Assembly (NCBI GenBank): GCA_016187025.1
Contig: JACPKM010000001.1
Coordinates: 384,055-448,054 of the forward strand
Length of the DNA: 64,000 nt
Source of the DNA: Candidatus Daviesbacteria bacterium
GTDB lineage: Bacteria > Patescibacteriota > Microgenomatia > Daviesbacterales > UBA10151
Reading direction: 5' to 3'
The stretch's first letter is position 1, and the number at the start of each line of letters is the position of its first letter. Both the position numbers and the translations under genes were made by a program. Below the pieces are notes generated by a model. The model searched no databases, had not been told where the DNA came from, and saw only the letters and a program-made list of their open reading frames with translations. This document shows, piece after piece, positions 37,646-50,096 of the stretch.

Positions 37646-37719
37646 GCCGCCATCGTCTAGTGGCTTAGGACATCGGATTCTCATTCCGAAAATCACGGGT
37701 TCAAATCCCGTTGGCGGTA
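37646..37719 (+). tRNA. tRNA-Glu (anticodon CUC), CCA not encoded
   Basis: Cloverleaf: acceptor GCCGCCA/TGGCGGT, D-arm GTCTAGTGGCTTAGGAC typical of tRNA-Glu, anticodon stem TCGGA/TCCGA with loop TTCTCAT, T-arm ACGGGTTCAAATCCCGT. Confidence 0.85.
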
Positions 37720-37808: not shown

Positions 37809-37832
37809 TTGCAAAACAGCCCAGAGAAGAAA

Positions 37833-38384
37833 ATGAAAAAACCCTCTACAAAGCTAAGTAGGGATAAGAATGAATTAACTCCTAAAAAAGGTGAGGGTTC
37901 CTCCTCAGGCGCACGCAGGGCTTCAACAAAAGTTATCTATGTAACCCAAAAAGGGCTTTCTGATGCTCACAAAGAATTAGACGAGTTACGGAACAAAGAA
38001 CGTCCTAAAGTAGCTGAAAAAATTCAACAAGCCAGAGAATATGGTGATCTGTCGGAAAACTCAGAATATGAGGCAGCCCTATCAGAGCAATCCTTAATTG
38101 AAAGCCGTATCAGCGAGCTTGAAGAAGTTATCAAAAGCTCTAAAGTTATTGTAGAAAATCATTCTCTGGATTTTGTAGTCATCGGTTCTTCGGTAACATT
38201 GGAGATGGGAGATGAGGTGGATGAATTTACTATTGTAGGAAGACTCGAAGCTGATCCGGCTAAAAAGCGGATTTCCAACGAATCCCCTCTTGGGGCTGCT
38301 TTATTGGGAGCCAGGACTGGTGAGGTAGTAGAAGTTGCAACACCAATTGTGAGATATAAGTGTAAGGTATTGGAGATCAAATAG
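37833..38384 (+). CDS. greA: Transcription elongation factor GreA with a basic N-terminal extension
   Basis: GreA coiled-coil and FKBP-like core (…YGDLSENSEYEAA…). The track ORF begins at TTG 37809; ATG 37833 is preferred given the promoter position. About 35 aa K/R/S-rich leader precedes the conserved core. Confidence 0.85.
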   Translation: MKKPSTKLSRDKNELTPKKGEGSSSGARRASTKVIYVTQKGLSDAHKELDELRNKERPKVAEKIQQAREYGDLSENSEYEAALSEQSLIESRISELEEVIKSSKVIVENHSLDFVVIGSSVTLEMGDEVDEFTIVGRLEADPAKKRISNESPLGAALLGARTGEVVEVATPIVRYKCKVLEIK

Positions 38385-38385
38385 A

Positions 38386-39720
38386 ATGAATGAACCTATA
38401 ACTGAATTTACGTCTAAATTACCCAAACTATCAGATAATCAGAAAAAAGTCTTAAAGCTTTTAATAGAAGCAGCAAGATTAATAGTCCCCCTTTATAAAA
38501 AGCAAGAGAACCATAGATTTGAGGGAGCTAATTTTTATCCACATGATGCTACTCGTGAAGAGATCACTAAAGCCGCAGCAACTAATTTTGAGATTCTATC
38601 TCCTTATTCTGTAGTAGAAAGAAAAGGAAAAGAGCTCATTGCCATTCCGTACCATTTAAAGTATGCAGAATTTTTAGAACCAATTGCTGATAAACTATTA
38701 AAAGCTGCATCCATAACGGACAATAAAGATTTTGCAAAAAGATTAGAATTCCAAGCAAACGCCTTATTAAACGGTACATATGATGAGGCAACCATTTATT
38801 GGATGAAGATGAGACCGTATATTCTGGATATTAATATTGGACCAGTAGAACGATATAACGACAAGCTATTTTTTACTAAAACCTCTTACCAGGCATGGGT
38901 TGGTGTGATGGACGGGGAAAGAACAGCAAGAGTTTTAAACTTCAAAAATATTATCCATACAGCAAGAAGAAAAACCTTGATGCCTTCAGAGAAGGTAGAC
39001 TTCTACGAAAAAGTTCAGATCAGAGTTGATGATTTATTAATATTTTCTGGACTTATTTCAAGAACCATGTTTTTGGGAGTAAACCTACCTAATGATACTA
39101 ACTTAATGGAAAAATATGGATCGGAAATTACCGTATTTAAGCAATCAATAGATTATAGGGTGAAGACTGAGGTGCTACCAGCTTTTAGCAAAGTTTTTTC
39201 TTCTAGTTTTCAGAAGGAGTTTGACTATGAGGATATCAGGTGGGGAACACTGTACTTTACTATCTTACATGAGCTTGGACATACATACTTGCGTTATAGA
39301 AACTCAGAAAGGAATTTAGAAGATCTATTCCCTATCATTGATGAACTATCTGCCTATGTTTTAGGTATGAAACTGGCAGGCTTTTTGCTCCTGAAAGATG
39401 TTTTAACTCAAAAACAATTAGAGTCTATCATGGTAGCATTTACTTCAAGGTGTTTTGAGTTGGTTCTAAACGAGAGCAATAACAAGTCCAAAATTCACTA
39501 TACCATCGGCGGTGCGATCTTTGTTAACTTTTTGTTTGAAACCGAAGCTATCAGAGAAAAAGAAGGAATCTCATGGCCAAATTTTACTAAAATGTTTGTT
39601 TCTTTAGACCAACTGGCAACTATTTTAGAAAGAATACTTTCTCAGGGGAGGCGTGAGGATGCAGAGGCTTTCATTAAAAAATACGGAGATATGAAAGTGC
39701 TTCAAAGGTTTAATATTTGA
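38386..39720 (+). CDS. Putative zinc metallopeptidase, gluzincin-like (HExxH plus a downstream Glu in a 'DELSA' motif)
   Basis: 'ILHELGHTYL' at nt 39268-39282 and 'IDELSAYVLG' 21 residues later. No signal peptide. Family assignment tentative. Confidence 0.5.
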   Translation: MNEPITEFTSKLPKLSDNQKKVLKLLIEAARLIVPLYKKQENHRFEGANFYPHDATREEITKAAATNFEILSPYSVVERKGKELIAIPYHLKYAEFLEPIADKLLKAASITDNKDFAKRLEFQANALLNGTYDEATIYWMKMRPYILDINIGPVERYNDKLFFTKTSYQAWVGVMDGERTARVLNFKNIIHTARRKTLMPSEKVDFYEKVQIRVDDLLIFSGLISRTMFLGVNLPNDTNLMEKYGSEITVFKQSIDYRVKTEVLPAFSKVFSSSFQKEFDYEDIRWGTLYFTILHELGHTYLRYRNSERNLEDLFPIIDELSAYVLGMKLAGFLLLKDVLTQKQLESIMVAFTSRCFELVLNESNNKSKIHYTIGGAIFVNFLFETEAIREKEGISWPNFTKMFVSLDQLATILERILSQGRREDAEAFIKKYGDMKVLQRFNI

Positions 39721-39759
39721 CCTTGTTGCAAGCTTCCTGTAAAATAACACCCCATTAAC

Positions 39760-41133
39760 ATGGCGACACCAGCAGAAAGATTTAGAACAGGAAATTATGA
39801 ATTAGGAACTCGTTTAGTTGGAGTTTATAGGGCTCTTGATAGAATAAGAGTAGCTAAAGGAGAAGTAGGTCATATAGACTTTGATTTAGCCCCAGTAAGA
39901 TATGTCACACTACCTGATGGTGTTATAAAAACAGAGGAACAAGCTGAAGGGCTACTTGCACATTATGCCTTACAAGCTGATCCGAGAACACCGGATGGAG
40001 CTTTTATGCGGGCAAGCGTTAAAGCTACACTCGCATTTTTAAGGGTTGCAAGAGGAGAACCGGTTGGTTATGCAGAATATATCAGGGAGACGTTGGAAAC
40101 GCATCCTAATCAGCCTTTTCGCAGAAGAATTGAGGATAAATATAATCTTGTAGCTGATTTAGCGAGAGAATGTGGTTTTACATATGATCCAGATGGTTGG
40201 AGCAGATATTTGCAAGACGCTGCTGTTCGTCCGGATACAGTTAAACTCGAATTTCGGAAAGCGCGACAAAGAGTTATACCCGTTCTCCTTGAGGAATTAG
40301 GATTAGATTTTAACCCCCAATACCGCACAGAAGTAAAACCGGTCGATGAACCTTGGATGTTTTGGACGAAGGTTGATAGAAGAGCAGGAGTAGTACTAAC
40401 AGTTAACACCCACAGTAGGCATGAATCACAGCTTTATCAAGCTAAGTTTCCACCCCTTTTAGCTCACGAATTAGGTGCTCATGGATTCCAGGGACTACAA
40501 ATTAGAGAGGGTGTGGATAAGGGAGGACTGAATCCCTTCTATGCTATAAGTAAAGTGCCAGGGCCAGAACAATTTGGAAACGAAGGATTGGCGATTGTTA
40601 TGTGTAATCTGTTACCCGCAGTTTACGAAGCTTTAGGGCCGGAGGGGCGAATGGAAGCTGAGCGTTATAAACTGGCAACGTGGGCATATCAGGTTGTTGC
40701 CAATGAAGCTGCTCAAGCAGGAGAAGTTAAACCTGAGCATTGGCAGTTTATACAACATTTTGTGCCAAGCGAACAACAGGACAGGTTCGAGAGGCAGATG
40801 AGAGAAAGATTAGAAGATCCAGTTTATCGCTCTTACCATCCCGCCTACAGTTTAGGTAGCCTTTTACTAGATATTGCTGCGGAAGTTTTACCTATTCCTG
40901 CCAGAAAAGAATTGGTTCAAGCGCTACTTGAAACGTATTTAACTCCGACACAAATTCGTAGAAAAATTGAGGAATTAAAAAGTAAGTATATTCCACATGG
41001 TGATCAAGAGCAGGTGGTTCATGAGATATCTGAGTTAGACGAAGGCCAGCCAGGATTTGATTTAAGAAACTGGCTCGCAGGGCTTTTAAGAGGAAAGTTT
41101 AGTGTTTTTAGTAGATCCTCAATTGCACACTAG
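39760..41133 (+). CDS. Putative metallohydrolase with atypical HExxxH motif and QEGLA-like 'NEGLA' motif (DUF1704 / MATCAP-like?)
   Basis: 'LAHELGAHGF' at nt 40465-40482 and 'GNEGLAIVM' at 40579-40593. Higher-GC, R-rich composition. Resemblance to the QEGLA-motif family is from memory and unverified. Confidence 0.45.
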   Translation: MATPAERFRTGNYELGTRLVGVYRALDRIRVAKGEVGHIDFDLAPVRYVTLPDGVIKTEEQAEGLLAHYALQADPRTPDGAFMRASVKATLAFLRVARGEPVGYAEYIRETLETHPNQPFRRRIEDKYNLVADLARECGFTYDPDGWSRYLQDAAVRPDTVKLEFRKARQRVIPVLLEELGLDFNPQYRTEVKPVDEPWMFWTKVDRRAGVVLTVNTHSRHESQLYQAKFPPLLAHELGAHGFQGLQIREGVDKGGLNPFYAISKVPGPEQFGNEGLAIVMCNLLPAVYEALGPEGRMEAERYKLATWAYQVVANEAAQAGEVKPEHWQFIQHFVPSEQQDRFERQMRERLEDPVYRSYHPAYSLGSLLLDIAAEVLPIPARKELVQALLETYLTPTQIRRKIEELKSKYIPHGDQEQVVHEISELDEGQPGFDLRNWLAGLLRGKFSVFSRSSIAH

Positions 41134-41173: not shown

Positions 41174-42676
41174 ATGGCGCTAGACCAACTACAAAAAGAA
41201 AGAATCAAAAAACTCAATAATTTAAAGAGGTTGGGAATTAATCCCTATCCAGCAAAATCTAGTAAAAAACAATCTATTGCTCAAGTATTAAAATTAATGG
41301 GTAAAAAAGTGACTGTAGCTGGAAGATTGAGATCAATGCGTCCTCACGGCAAAATAGCTTTTGCAGATTTGGAAGATGCTTCCGGAAAAATACAGCTGCT
41401 TCTTAGGCAAAATAATGTTGGAGATGCTTATGAGCTGCTGCCTAATCTAGATATAGGCGATTTTATAGAAACCTTAGGCGAGGTTATCAAAACCCAAGCC
41501 GGGGAAACAACAATAGATGTAACAGATTTTAAGGTTTTAACAAAGTCACTCCGACCTCTTCCTTCTTCCTGGTATGGCCTAAAGGATGTTGAAGAAAGAT
41601 ATAGAAGAAGGTATGTGGATATGGTCATGAATCCTGAGGTAAAAAAGATTATGGAACTGCGCTCAAAAATCATTTTTTCATTAAGGGATTTTTTAATTAA
41701 TAAAAAGGGTTACTATGAGGTTGAAAATCCAGTTCTGCAACCACTTTACGGTGGAACAAGAGCAAGGCCATTTAAAACCCATCACAACAGTTTAGATATG
41801 TCTTTGTTTTTGCGGATTTCCAATGAGCTTTATTTAAAAAGATTGATAGTGGGAGGATTTGAAAAAGTTTTTGAAATTGGACATACCTTTAGAAATGAAG
41901 GAATGGATAGAAATCATAACCCAGAATTTACCATGCTTGAGACAATGGAGGCATATGCCGATTATATCGATAATATGGATCTGGTTGAGGAGATGTTTGA
42001 ATATGTTGTCAAAACTGTTTTTGGAAAGACAAAGCTAGCCTATCAAGGAAAAGAAATAGAGTTTAAAAGACCGTGGGTAAGGGTTAAACTTGCCGATCTT
42101 TTTAAAACACATACTGGGGTAAATTTTGATGAAATAGACACTTTGGAAAAAGCTACTACTTTGGCCAAAAAGCTTGGAGTAGAGATTAAAGATTTTATGA
42201 CAGATGGTGAAATCTTGCTGGAGATTTTTGAGAAAAAATGCACAGATCAGCTTGTTCAGCCAACGTTTGTTTACGATTATCCAGCAGATTTTTATCCGCT
42301 GGCCAAAAGAAAAGCAAATAATCAAAAATTTGTTGAAAGCTTTGATATTTATGTAGCCGGTATGGAAATGGGGACAAATTATTCAGAACAGAATGATCCC
42401 CAGGAGTTAAAAAAAGCTTGGGAAGATGAAAAGAAAAAGTTAAAAAAAGGAAATCCAGAAGCCCAAAAAACCGATGATGACTTTTTAACTGCACTTGAGT
42501 ATGGAATGCCGCCTACATCTGGAATAGGGCCTGGTCTTGATAGGTGGGTGATGGTGATGACTGATTCTCCCTCTATTGCAGATGTTATTCCATTCCCGAT
42601 GCTACGACCTGAGAAAAAGATTAAGCTTAAGGAGCAAGTTAAGGTGGGAGAGAAAACAAAAGCGGAGATTAAATGA
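41174..42676 (+). CDS. lysS: Lysine--tRNA ligase (class II)
   Basis: N-terminal OB anticodon-binding domain and class II motifs 1-3 (…FRNEGMDRNHNPEFTMLE…, …GIGPGLDRWVM…). ATG at 41174 (MALDQLQKER); the track ORF extends upstream to 41102. Confidence 0.95.
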   Translation: MALDQLQKERIKKLNNLKRLGINPYPAKSSKKQSIAQVLKLMGKKVTVAGRLRSMRPHGKIAFADLEDASGKIQLLLRQNNVGDAYELLPNLDIGDFIETLGEVIKTQAGETTIDVTDFKVLTKSLRPLPSSWYGLKDVEERYRRRYVDMVMNPEVKKIMELRSKIIFSLRDFLINKKGYYEVENPVLQPLYGGTRARPFKTHHNSLDMSLFLRISNELYLKRLIVGGFEKVFEIGHTFRNEGMDRNHNPEFTMLETMEAYADYIDNMDLVEEMFEYVVKTVFGKTKLAYQGKEIEFKRPWVRVKLADLFKTHTGVNFDEIDTLEKATTLAKKLGVEIKDFMTDGEILLEIFEKKCTDQLVQPTFVYDYPADFYPLAKRKANNQKFVESFDIYVAGMEMGTNYSEQNDPQELKKAWEDEKKKLKKGNPEAQKTDDDFLTALEYGMPPTSGIGPGLDRWVMVMTDSPSIADVIPFPMLRPEKKIKLKEQVKVGEKTKAEIK

Positions 42677-44101: not shown

Positions 44102-45094
44102 TTATTGTCCTTGTTGACGCTGCCTTAGAAGCTCAGCTGCTGATGTGGCTGCTGGAGCGGGAGATTGAGTTGAATCTTCCATCTGCCCAAAGTTAGCAGA
44201 GCCTGTTGCCATCTCCTCAGATTGTGGGGCAGGAGTAGAGGCTGGGGGAGGGGGTTTTATTTGTTGAGCTGTATTTTCTGTTGTAGCAGGAAGGCTGGTG
44301 GTTCCTTCTTTAGGTTGTCCAACCCCTAGAATAAAATATGCGGAAGCTGCAGAAACAGCCAGGAGTAACCCCGCGCCTAATCCTAGAATCCACTTGGGTA
44401 CTCCTTTGCTAGGATTTGGTGGTGTAGTTGTTGATGTTTCAGGAACTGTATTTGCGTTTTGAGTTGTCAAGGTTTCTGCTTGGGTGTTTGCAGGTAAGGA
44501 AGTGTTGGTAAAGTCGGTGGTATCTGTTATTAAATGAGACAAATCAGTTGGAGCCTGTTCAATACTGGCTTGAGGCGGTTGAGGATTGTATGTATTCTGT
44601 GTGCTAGGAATTCCTTCCCATGAAGGTGAAATAGTTGTGTCGGTAGTTGGAATTATTCCTTCTTGTGGTGCTGGATTTGTTATAGGATCAGCAGGTACTG
44701 GTTGGGCAGGAAGAGGTTCGGGTATATTAAAAGATGGTGGTAGGCTTTCAGTTGGTGTAACTGGTTGAGTAGGATAAGGATTTGACTGAGGGTTTAAAAA
44801 AGAATTTGGATCTGTTGGGGGGATTGCATCAGATGACAAAGGATTGCCTAAAGGTTGTGGAGCAGTTACAGATGGAGCCATTGGTGGGTTAGGAGCAGGT
44901 GTTAAATCTTGCGGAGAACTAGTGAAACTACTCGTTTGCTGATCAAACGGGGTAGCAGGAGGTGTAGGATTTTGAGGTAGATTTTGGTTTTGTGCAAAGC
45001 TTAATTCAGGATCCTGAGGTGGTTGATTGCCAGCAACAGGAGTTGGAGGGGTATTTAAATTATCAGTATTTGAGCTGTTTGAGTTGTTATCCAT
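44102..45094 (-). CDS. Low-complexity Pro/Thr/Gln/Asn-rich protein with a single TM helix
   Basis: 330 aa, extreme P/T/Q/N bias. One hydrophobic helix 'WILGLGAGLLLAVSAASAYFILGV' near the C-terminal third. No enzymatic motif. Confidence 0.45.
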   Translation of the reverse strand: MDNNSNSSNTDNLNTPPTPVAGNQPPQDPELSFAQNQNLPQNPTPPATPFDQQTSSFTSSPQDLTPAPNPPMAPSVTAPQPLGNPLSSDAIPPTDPNSFLNPQSNPYPTQPVTPTESLPPSFNIPEPLPAQPVPADPITNPAPQEGIIPTTDTTISPSWEGIPSTQNTYNPQPPQASIEQAPTDLSHLITDTTDFTNTSLPANTQAETLTTQNANTVPETSTTTPPNPSKGVPKWILGLGAGLLLAVSAASAYFILGVGQPKEGTTSLPATTENTAQQIKPPPPASTPAPQSEEMATGSANFGQMEDSTQSPAPAATSAAELLRQRQQGQ

Positions 45095-47878: not shown

Positions 47879-48793
47879 ATGTATAAGATTTTTATTATAT
47901 TCTTGCTGTCTATAGTTATGCTTGCCCCTGTGGGTGTATATGCGCAGGAAGAGCAATCAATAGACCAAATCCCTCTCGAATCCACTGAGTCCTCAAAAGA
48001 AGCTACTTCTTCAACCTCTGAAAAAGAGAGGTTAGAAAAACTAAAACAGGAAGATATTACCAAGCCAGAAGAAGAAAAGCAGCGGGAGGAATTCTTGGCT
48101 TTATTTTCAAAAAGGCACATTGATAAACTAACGCCTTTAAACTTTATGGGTTATTTGGTGCAATACTCTATAAAAGTTGGAGTGCCTGCGAATACGGTTA
48201 TATTAATTTTATTGGTTCCTTTTTTGGCAACTTTTATAGTTTTTGTCAGGCAAATTATTGGACTACCAAGTTTGGAGATGTTGGTACCAATTGCGCTTTC
48301 TATTACCTTTATATCAACTGGTATTACAGCAGGTGCTATCCTTCTTGCAACAATTTTGCTTGCATCAACTATTGCAAGAATAACTTTAAAAAAGATTAGA
48401 ATTATGCAATTACCTAAGATTGCATTATCAAACTTAGTGGTTGCAATATTTGTTTTTATTTCCTTAACAGTTAGTGCATCTGTAGGAATCCTAACGGTAA
48501 AACAGTTATCAATCTTTCCAGTTTTGCTGCTGATATTACTTAGCGAAAAGACAGTTGCTGTGCAACTTTCCCGTGGTCCTCAAGAGGCTTTTGTAATTAC
48601 CTCTATGACTTTACTGCTAGCAATTATCGGGTTTTTAATACTTTCATCTGAAACAGTCAGAAGCTTTATTTTGCTATATCCAGAGCTAATACTTGCTTTG
48701 GTGCCAATCAATATTATTATGGGAAGATATTTTGGACTTAGGCTTACAGAGTTCTTTCGTTTTTCTACTTTGAGAAAATATGTCAATCAGTAA
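47879..48793 (+). CDS. Seven-TM membrane protein with signal peptide and acidic N-terminal ectodomain (partner of the ATP-grasp gene)
   Basis: Signal peptide (…LAPVGVYAQEE), about 70-aa E/K/S-rich region, then about 7 hydrophobic helices. 3' end overlaps the next gene by 14 nt. Confidence 0.55.
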   Translation: MYKIFIIFLLSIVMLAPVGVYAQEEQSIDQIPLESTESSKEATSSTSEKERLEKLKQEDITKPEEEKQREEFLALFSKRHIDKLTPLNFMGYLVQYSIKVGVPANTVILILLVPFLATFIVFVRQIIGLPSLEMLVPIALSITFISTGITAGAILLATILLASTIARITLKKIRIMQLPKIALSNLVVAIFVFISLTVSASVGILTVKQLSIFPVLLLILLSEKTVAVQLSRGPQEAFVITSMTLLLAIIGFLILSSETVRSFILLYPELILALVPINIIMGRYFGLRLTEFFRFSTLRKYVNQ

Positions 48794-50096
48794 GGGCATC
48801 TTAGGATTAAACGCCCGTAACTTCCTTTATATTAGAAAATACAACCTTCCTTCTCCAAAACAGCGGGCAGATAATAAGCTAGAGACAAAAAAGCTACTGA
48901 TTAGGAATAAAATTCCAACTAATAAACTGCTGCAAGTTTTTGACAATAGAGAAAGTATTAAAAACTTTGATTGGAGTTTACCAGAGGAAGGGTTTGCTCT
49001 AAAGCCTGCAAGAGGATATGGGGGAGAGGGAATATTAATTTTTAAAAACTGGAATAACCAAAAAGGGGAAACTATATCGGGGGAGACATTCGATGTTAGA
49101 CAAATAGAATCTCATATCCTTGATATTTTTGAAGGCGCATATTCTCTTCAGTCCCTACCGGATAAGGCCTATATAGAAGAAAAAATTACCCCCCAGCATT
49201 TTTTAAAAAAAATTGATTTAATGGGACTGCCTGATATTAGGATTATCGTTTTTAATAAAGTTCCTGTTATGGCAATGTTAAGACTGCCAACACCGGAATC
49301 AAAAGGAAAAGCTAACCTGCATTTGGGAGCAGTTGGTGTAGGAATAGATCTTCGGACCGGTATTACCAAGGATGCTGTTTACAGAGGGACTTTAATTACT
49401 TTTATTCCCAATACCAAGATTAAAACAAGGGGGATAAAAATTCCTTTTTGGGACCAGATTTTAATGCTTGCTTCTAAGGCTCAATTTGTCAGTAGGTTAG
49501 GACTTGCTGGTGTGGACATTGTGATAGATGAAAACATAGGCCCACTTATATTAGAAATCAATTCCAGGCCTGGGTTATCAATACAAAATGCAAATTTGGC
49601 ATCTCTTAGGTCAAGGTTAGAAAGAGTAGAGCATATTAATATTCCAAGTTTTGAAAGAGCCATTGAGGTGTCAAGGTCGCTTTTTGCAGATGATTTTTCA
49701 GATAAAGTGGATCTTGACCCAAAAGTACTTTCAATTATAGAGCCGATTGTTGTAATAAATGAAGGTAAAAGCAAAATGTATGAAGCAAAACTCGATACAG
49801 GGGCTTTTAGAACTTCCCTTGATAAAGATGTTGTGCAAGAACTCAACCTAGAATATCAAAAGGAGAAAATCTTAATTAAGGCTGCTAGTGGTCAACAAGA
49901 AAGAAGAGTGGTTAAGCTGACATTTAACTTAGCAGGAAAGAAAATTACTACCAACGCAACAGTTGCAGAAAGAGGACACTTAAAATATCCGATTATTGTT
50001 GGCAGAAGAGACTTAAAAGGATTTTTAATTAACCCAGATTTACCCGAAGAAAAAAGCGGAGAAGCAATTGAGGATATTGAAATAAGTACCGAGTAA
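48780..50096 (+). CDS. RimK-like ATP-grasp amidoligase ('sugar-transfer-associated' type, N-terminal 'GLNARN' motif) fused to a C-terminal retropepsin-like aspartyl protease domain
   Basis: ATP-grasp blocks: 'ILGLNARNFLYI', 'DNKLETKKLLIRNKIP', 'ALKPARGYGGEGILI', 'DIRIIVFNKVPVMAMLRL...ANLHLGA', 'LAGVDIVIDENIGPLILEINSRPG'. C-terminal 'KLDTGAFRTSL' (DTGA at nt 49794-49805) and 'IIVGRRDLKG' (retropepsin GRD/N-type motif). Confidence 0.7.
   Translation: MSISKGILGLNARNFLYIRKYNLPSPKQRADNKLETKKLLIRNKIPTNKLLQVFDNRESIKNFDWSLPEEGFALKPARGYGGEGILIFKNWNNQKGETISGETFDVRQIESHILDIFEGAYSLQSLPDKAYIEEKITPQHFLKKIDLMGLPDIRIIVFNKVPVMAMLRLPTPESKGKANLHLGAVGVGIDLRTGITKDAVYRGTLITFIPNTKIKTRGIKIPFWDQILMLASKAQFVSRLGLAGVDIVIDENIGPLILEINSRPGLSIQNANLASLRSRLERVEHINIPSFERAIEVSRSLFADDFSDKVDLDPKVLSIIEPIVVINEGKSKMYEAKLDTGAFRTSLDKDVVQELNLEYQKEKILIKAASGQQERRVVKLTFNLAGKKITTNATVAERGHLKYPIIVGRRDLKGFLINPDLPEEKSGEAIEDIEISTE

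Follow-up and report, generated by a model that had tools for sequence, protein, structure and literature searches.

MATCAP/TMCP1 (KIAA0895L; reported as DUF1704) is a tubulin detyrosinating metallocarboxypeptidase, and an earlier note on the DNA described here had tentatively taken two neighbouring genes, ORF A and ORF B, for divergent paralogues of the same DUF1704/MATCAP group. The DNA is a 64-kb stretch (the window, whose positions are used throughout) of a Candidatus Daviesbacteria genome, within the Patescibacteria or candidate phyla radiation (CPR). The closest described relatives of the two proteins lie elsewhere among the gluzincins. Members of peptidase family M49, the dipeptidyl-peptidases III (DPP III), carry a first motif HExxGH or HExxH and a second motif EExR(K)AE(D) in which the second Glu is a zinc ligand, and the pentapeptide HExxH marks a bacterial M49 subgroup (PMC5805324, PMC9820243). 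Both solved relatives of ORF A, CaDPP III of Caldithrix abyssi and CoDPP III of Corallococcus, are active pentapeptide-motif DPP IIIs (PMC5805324, PMC9820243), and the zinc ligands of CaDPP III are the two histidines of HEISH and, in EECKAD, the second Glu (PMC5805324). DUF885 (PF05960) is an uncharacterised member of the Pfam Peptidase_MA clan (PMC12572635), and our literature search found no functional paper on any DUF885 member. Taken as a whole, the locus is in our view probably best explained as a pair of gluzincin peptidases from these two different directions, one of the M49 family and one of an unrecognised family with a DUF885-like fold, which would serve peptide recycling, with ORF B inherited vertically and evolving fast.

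As the earlier note had placed them, the two genes are co-directional and follow directly after greA; in the source record they are the hypothetical proteins HYW42_02495 (ORF A) and HYW42_02500 (ORF B). Their coordinates and the motifs of ORF A are as follows.

ORF A, 38386..39720, forward strand: 444 aa, small DPP III homologue of family M49, pentapeptide HExxH subgroup
ORF A HELGH, 39268..39282, forward strand: residues 295-299 (H295, E296, H299), aligning to HEISH of CaDPP III
ORF A DELSAY, 39340..39357, forward strand: residues 319-324, second M49 motif, E320 being the predicted third zinc ligand
ORF B, 39760..41133, forward strand: 457 aa, unannotated, of a highly divergent gluzincin family with a predicted DUF885-like fold

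ORF A scores 27.5 bits against Pfam Peptidase_M49 (PF03571), above the gathering cutoff of 21, so that the M49 profile search proposed in the earlier note came out positive. Its residues 45-423 align with residues 126-513 of CaDPP III (6EOM) at an E value of 2.1e-35, and CoDPP III (5ZUM) is matched at 6.5e-20. The 6EOM alignment sets HELGH on HEISH and D-E320-LSAY on E-E-CKAD. The stretch IDELSAYVLG (residues 318-327), whose E320 does stand 21 residues past H299 as the note had counted, is thus a degenerate second M49 motif and not a QEGLA-like motif shared with ORF B: the Lys/Arg and the acidic last residue of EECKAD are lost, and only the ligand Glu and the Ala are kept. Across 28 ORF A family members E296, H299 and E320 never vary, and H295 is kept in at least 90%. 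A HELGH-type motif arises in 0.7% of shuffles of the single ORF A sequence, and since the residues are invariant or nearly so across the family we take the motif to be a functional site and not a product of chance. By homology, H295, H299 and E320 are the predicted zinc ligands and E296 the predicted general base. ORF A shares the two-lobe DPP III fold and both M49 motifs, and is considerably smaller than the 'short' bacterial M49 group (444 aa versus ~540-566 aa). Judged by its sequence, ORF A is a compact M49 DPP III that falls in the HExxH pentapeptide subgroup; it adds one member to a known family and would cleave N-terminal dipeptides off short peptides.

ORF B is less easily placed. A word-indexed search of 5.8 billion proteins recovered ORF B alone, which made it look like an orphan; an exhaustive HMMER search then found 225 relatives at E<=1e-3, the best of them 34% identical, and a set of about 15 billion proteins contains no homologue above that identity. 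The 225 are representatives at 50% identity. In public sources its members are named 'hypothetical protein' or are unnamed. Pfam and NCBIfam contain no model that ORF B matches even at E<=1, none of 103 family members matches any peptidase Pfam model (E<=0.1), nor does the family consensus (E<=10), and neither the family profile nor the consensus matched a peptidase in the PDB by sequence. An alignment of 126 family sequences, with a mean column identity of 20%, has six invariant columns (D40, N216, H236, E237, H241 and E275), and G276, P336, Y359 and Y363 are conserved in at least 90%. The positions of the conserved sites are given below together with the secondary structure elements of the model described in the next paragraph.

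ORF B D40, 39877..39879, forward strand: invariant in 126 sequences, in an IDFD beta-strand (model strand 39-42), with a putative role at the active site
ORF B N216, 40405..40407, forward strand: invariant, ends strand 210-216, 20 residues upstream of HELGAH
ORF B HELGAH, 40465..40482, forward strand: residues 236-241, on helix 227-253, H236, E237 and H241 all invariant
ORF B NEGLA, 40579..40593, forward strand: residues 274-278, on helix 270-284, E275 invariant and the predicted third zinc ligand, G276 conserved in at least 90%
ORF B YHPAY, 40834..40848, forward strand: tyrosines Y359 and Y363 conserved in at least 90%, on helix 356-376

The HELGAH motif and the GNEGLAIVM stretch (residues 273-281), with E275 34 residues beyond H241, are as the earlier note had described them. 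A HELGAH-type motif arises in 3.3% of shuffles of the single ORF B sequence, and it is the invariance of H236, E237, H241 and E275 in 126 sequences that argues for a functional site over chance. The family consensus reads HExxGH...xEG(l/i)A. The first motif is HExxxH in 108 of the 126 members and, via a one-residue deletion, HExxH in a further 17; a dimorphism of HExxxH and HExxH inside one family is also a feature of M49. The prediction that both proteins are zincin-like held up: with a conserved HExxH or HExxxH and a downstream Glu, ORF A and ORF B are both predicted gluzincin-type zinc peptidases. N216 may correspond in position to the edge strand with which gluzincins bind substrate, and Y359/Y363 are candidates for a transition-state-stabilising Tyr of the kind found in M2, M3 and M32 enzymes. 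One family member, P0153 (L063:6001-7773, JGI 3300044836), has a Macro domain (PF01661, E 8.6e-13, residues 22-112) N-terminal to its B domain (residues 201-574); this is a single example, and it might point towards a connection with ADP-ribosylated substrates.

To place ORF B by structure we used an AlphaFold model built from the family alignment (pLDDT 92.0, pTM 0.90). In this model HELGAH is on one helix (227-253) and E275 on a later one (270-284), the canonical gluzincin arrangement, so that ORF B has what defines the Peptidase_MA clan, a His-Glu-x-x-(x)-His helix and a Glu on a later helix, both conserved. Fold comparisons gave the following scores, each with the number of residues compared.

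DUF885 structure 3IUK: 24.7, 355 residues
DUF885 structure 3U24: 21.4, 349 residues
DUF885 structure 3O0Y: 21.3, 368 residues
MATCAP (7Z6S, 7Z5G): 13.0, 236-237 residues
Oligoendopeptidase F (M3): 12.3, 331 residues
M32 carboxypeptidases: 10.2-11.2, 294-307 residues
M1 aminopeptidases, top matches: about 10.6, 225-243 residues
Thermolysin: 10.1, 194 residues
DPP III 5ZUM: 6.8, 203 residues

The only significant Foldseek matches were likewise DUF885 structures (E 4e-5 to 2e-3, probability 1.00, TM about 0.5). The model therefore has the DUF885 fold, and DUF885, not MATCAP, whose family the earlier note had favoured, is the closest fold of ORF B as modelled; the match to MATCAP is far weaker and is not significant in Foldseek. 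The relationship is a distant one, however. Structure-based identity to the DUF885 structures is 11-12%, and ORF B is ~100 residues shorter and lacks a signal peptide, whereas the entries 3U24 and 3O0Y are annotated as putative lipoproteins. At the sequence level the PF05960 profile matches neither ORF B nor its 103 relatives nor the family consensus, and the ORF B family profile does not match the 3IUK, 3U24 or 3O0Y sequences. The M32 (Taq/Pfu type) and M3 families differ in having HExxH where ORF B has HExxxH, and ORF B shows neither the M32 signature motifs nor any sequence similarity. Together these results indicate that ORF B represents an unrecognised gluzincin family for which no profile exists, fold-related to DUF885.

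If ORF A and ORF B were DUF1704 paralogues they should match both that family and each other in sequence searches, and they do neither. DUF1704 (PF08014) and TIGR02421 match neither protein in Pfam/NCBIfam at E<=1, nor any of the 103 ORF B family members (E<=0.1), nor the consensus (E<=10), and the ORF B family profile finds no match to the MATCAP chains in the PDB at E<=10. At the motif level HELGAH, 34 residues and NEGLA do agree with HExxxH...(Q/E)EG(LA), but such a resemblance alone does not amount to membership. Between ORF A and ORF B, BLASTP gives an E value of 0.52 and profile-profile comparison a probability of 1%, with the HE motif alone aligned. Paralogy was thus rejected, as there is no BLASTP or profile-profile homology and the two belong to different families.

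To follow the two genes across genomes we examined 49 loci, anchored on the ORF A family with one genome per species, and searched their flanks with the ORF B family HMM. A B-family gene stands directly beside the A orthologue in 21 of the 49 species-level loci, co-directional in 17 and convergent in 4 (contigs L048, L051, L053 and L054, labelled Saccharibacteria). In related Daviesbacteria the order is greA, A orthologue, a 425-aa protein and lysS, and the 425-aa proteins are ORF B homologues of 23-26% identity; lysS is the conserved gene downstream of ORF B across related genomes. P0122, the closest relative of ORF B (34% identity), lies in the same greA-A-B-lysS-serS order, and so does P0163. 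What is new here is that the A-B gene pair recurs across Patescibacteria and that B diverges far faster than A: B orthologues are 19-28% identical to ORF B where the linked A orthologues are 41-66% identical to ORF A, and in an all-against-all comparison of the Curtissbacteria/Daviesbacteria group A proteins of 84% identity go with B proteins of 34-38% (L018/L032, L017/L018). The convergent pair of the Saccharibacteria-labelled group (L051/L054) has A at 86% and B at 74%, with no fast divergence of B there. Set beside its six invariant residues, the sequence of B looks like that of a fast-diverging scaffold around a fixed active site.

The slot after A was also seen in other states. In many Daviesbacteria genomes a variable ORF of 250-360 aa stands between the A orthologue and lysS (L014, L019, L021, L026, L029, L030, L033-L037, L040-L042, L044, L045 and L052), and these slot ORFs have no HExxH, no Pfam match and no HMM relation to A or B. 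L046, L049 and L050 have a divergent A-like paralogue in the ORF B slot, and L016 and L023 show the order A-B-A'.

In the window itself the pair lies between two housekeeping genes.

greA, 37809..38384, forward strand: Pfam GreA_GreB_N E 1e-24 and GreA_GreB E 3e-20, heads the co-directional cluster greA-A-B-lysS-serS
lysS, 41174..42676, forward strand: class II lysyl-tRNA synthetase, Pfam tRNA_anti-codon and tRNA-synt_2 on the identical gene in locus L001

As predicted mechanically, the lysS ORF begins at a GTG at 41102, so that its first 32 nt lie within the end of ORF B; the true start is likely the ATG at 41174 (MALDQLQKE), giving a 40-nt spacer after ORF B. Gaps of 1 nt between greA and ORF A and of 39 nt between ORF A and ORF B, together with the lack of any terminator-like site found from greA to lysS, suggest that ORF A and ORF B are probably co-transcribed within the greA-A-B-lysS-serS housekeeping cluster. 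Both proteins lack a hydrophobic N-terminus, a transmembrane segment and a predicted signal peptide, so that both products are probably soluble and cytoplasmic. Just 5′ of greA lies a tRNA gene (37646-37719, forward strand; Rfam RF00005, 65.5 bits), the sole Rfam match in the window. Between serS and secA a 330-aa ORF on the reverse strand (44102-45094) contains 18% proline and a hydrophobic segment at ~residue 240; it explains a local peak of GC and GC skew, and no Pfam match is recorded for the identical gene in L001.

The partner that the earlier note had implied for the two peptidases, an ATP-grasp ligase ~8 kb downstream, was found 7.6 kb downstream, with lysS, serS, the Pro-rich ORF and secA standing in between.

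Rlo-like two-gene cassette, 47879-50096, forward strand: RloB-like 7TM protein followed by an RloC-like ATP-grasp
ATP-grasp gene, 48780-50096, forward strand: ATPgrasp_ST E 3e-66; TIGR02291 262 bits, below the cutoff of 314

In Pseudomonas, the RloABC operon pairs an ATP-grasp ligase with its own peptidase, and RloB is reported as 96% proteobacterial (PMC12239564). Systems of the RloABC/RimBK kind consist of an ATP-grasp ligase and a retropepsin, in some cases joined by a 7TM inactive transglutaminase. Like RloABC/RimBK, the present cassette combines a 7TM protein, an ATP-grasp ligase and a retropepsin; unlike them, it has the retropepsin-like domain (RloA/RimB-like, ~residues 324-419) fused to the C-terminus of the ligase, and its 7TM_transglut protein (PF14402, E 6e-25), which precedes the ATP-grasp, has no transglutaminase domain. 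With a retropepsin of its own on the same polypeptide and an RloB-like 7TM protein encoded ahead of it, the ATP-grasp belongs to a self-contained Rlo-like cassette, and given the proteobacterial distribution reported for RloB it is unusual to meet such a fused two-gene form in a CPR genome. In no other locus examined does an ATP-grasp occur within 6 kb of the A-B pair. With a cassette of its own and no recurrence near the pair elsewhere, the ATP-grasp was rejected as a partner of ORF A and ORF B. Since ORF B has neither tubulin nor a linked ligase to act with, and the two proteins are neither DUF1704 members nor paralogues, the proposal that A and B remove a C-terminal residue added by the downstream ligase is largely refuted, and we regard it as highly improbable.

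The composition of ORF B had been read as a sign of separate acquisition, and the underlying observations are confirmed: its GC content is 0.426, where ORF A has 0.348 and the neighbours 0.35-0.41, and its product is rich in Arg (8.5% R, 3.9% K). If ORF B had come horizontally from a higher-GC donor, an Arg/Ala/Gly/Pro-rich protein whose nearest known homologue is so distant would be no surprise. However, the GC excess is carried by the first two codon positions (GC1 0.594, GC2 0.404), while GC3 is 0.279, equal to or below that of the neighbours, and the Arg codons are dominated by AGA, matching the host. An excess of Arg over Lys is moreover typical of the whole family, in which ORF B ranks 39th of 126, and extends to the syntenic orthologues (7-10% Arg), and the greA-A-B-lysS slot is also where its closest relative and many further ones lie. 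Since GC3 and Arg codons are host-like, the Arg content is a family trait and the gene is syntenic, we consider a horizontal origin very unlikely. With host-like GC3 and Arg codons and a syntenic closest relative, the sequences argue instead for vertical descent of ORF B in its slot, with divergence far faster than that of A.

How might the two peptidases work? In the model that we prefer, ORF A and ORF B would be soluble zinc metallopeptidases from different gluzincin families, probably made from one transcript. ORF A, by homology, would take N-terminal dipeptides from short peptides. ORF B has the modelled fold of DUF885 proteins, which are of the M32/M3-like helical gluzincin group; H236, H241 and E275 would hold the metal, E237 would act as base, and N216, D40 and Y359/Y363 would shape the site for substrate and transition state. 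Its fold neighbours M32, M3 and MATCAP suggest that it may be an oligopeptidase or a carboxypeptidase on short cytosolic peptides. Between them the two enzymes would trim peptides from both ends, and so help a Patescibacteria cell of limited biosynthetic capacity to recycle or scavenge amino acids. Several observations weigh against such cooperation. The pairing is missing in 28 of the 49 loci, where the slot holds an unrelated 250-360 aa ORF, an A-like paralogue or nothing (L043), and distant B-family members are found without A; the pairing may thus reflect inherited synteny and not functional coupling. The ORF A-ORF B spacer also contains a promoter-like match, at a frequency equal to that of chance, and the substrate and the exo/endo specificity suggested for ORF B derive from its fold neighbours only. 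The main rival is accordingly that A and B are functionally independent and adjacent merely by inherited gene order in a housekeeping cluster whose post-A slot is variable. The differently filled or empty slots, the B-family members that occur without A in other contexts, and the decoupled evolutionary rates of A and B all fit this reading, but the pairing is kept in inverted orientation in a distant group (L048, L051, L053, L054), and such convergent pairs are poorly explained by inherited operon order alone; furthermore, both proteins are peptidases whose action is potentially complementary. We regard independence as possible but not probable.

ORF B could also be MATCAP-like in action without being so by family, trimming the C-terminus of one lineage-variable protein, in which case its divergence would reflect co-evolution with a substrate or an inhibitor. 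The characterised fold neighbours MATCAP and the M32 carboxypeptidases do act on the C-terminus, the active site is invariant within an extremely fast-diverging scaffold, and the fusion to a Macro domain suggests protein-modification contexts. However, no conserved candidate substrate or ligase lies nearby, the fold comparison puts oligoendopeptidase F and M1 aminopeptidases nearly level with the carboxypeptidases, the Macro fusion is one example, and fast divergence would follow equally from weak constraint on a monomeric soluble scaffold, making a protein substrate of this kind unlikely in our view. Extending the same analogy to the family, its members might be MATCAP-like carboxypeptidases of protein C-termini that co-evolve with a lineage-specific substrate or antagonist in episymbiotic Patescibacteria, the linked mini-DPP III finishing the released peptides, which we consider decidedly unlikely.

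None of this has a bearing on tubulin-code-like tyrosination cycles in bacteria. ORF A is a routine M49 peptidase, notable solely for its small size. ORF B is of moderate interest: it evolves several-fold faster than its neighbour with six residues fixed, and its sizeable family, of at least 225 representatives at the level of 50% identity, goes wholly unrecognised by current profile libraries. Patescibacteria rely on scavenged building blocks, and their amino-acid recycling could plausibly include a conserved cytosolic peptidase pair. Through the fold link between ORF B and DUF885, characterising one member would inform two unknown families.

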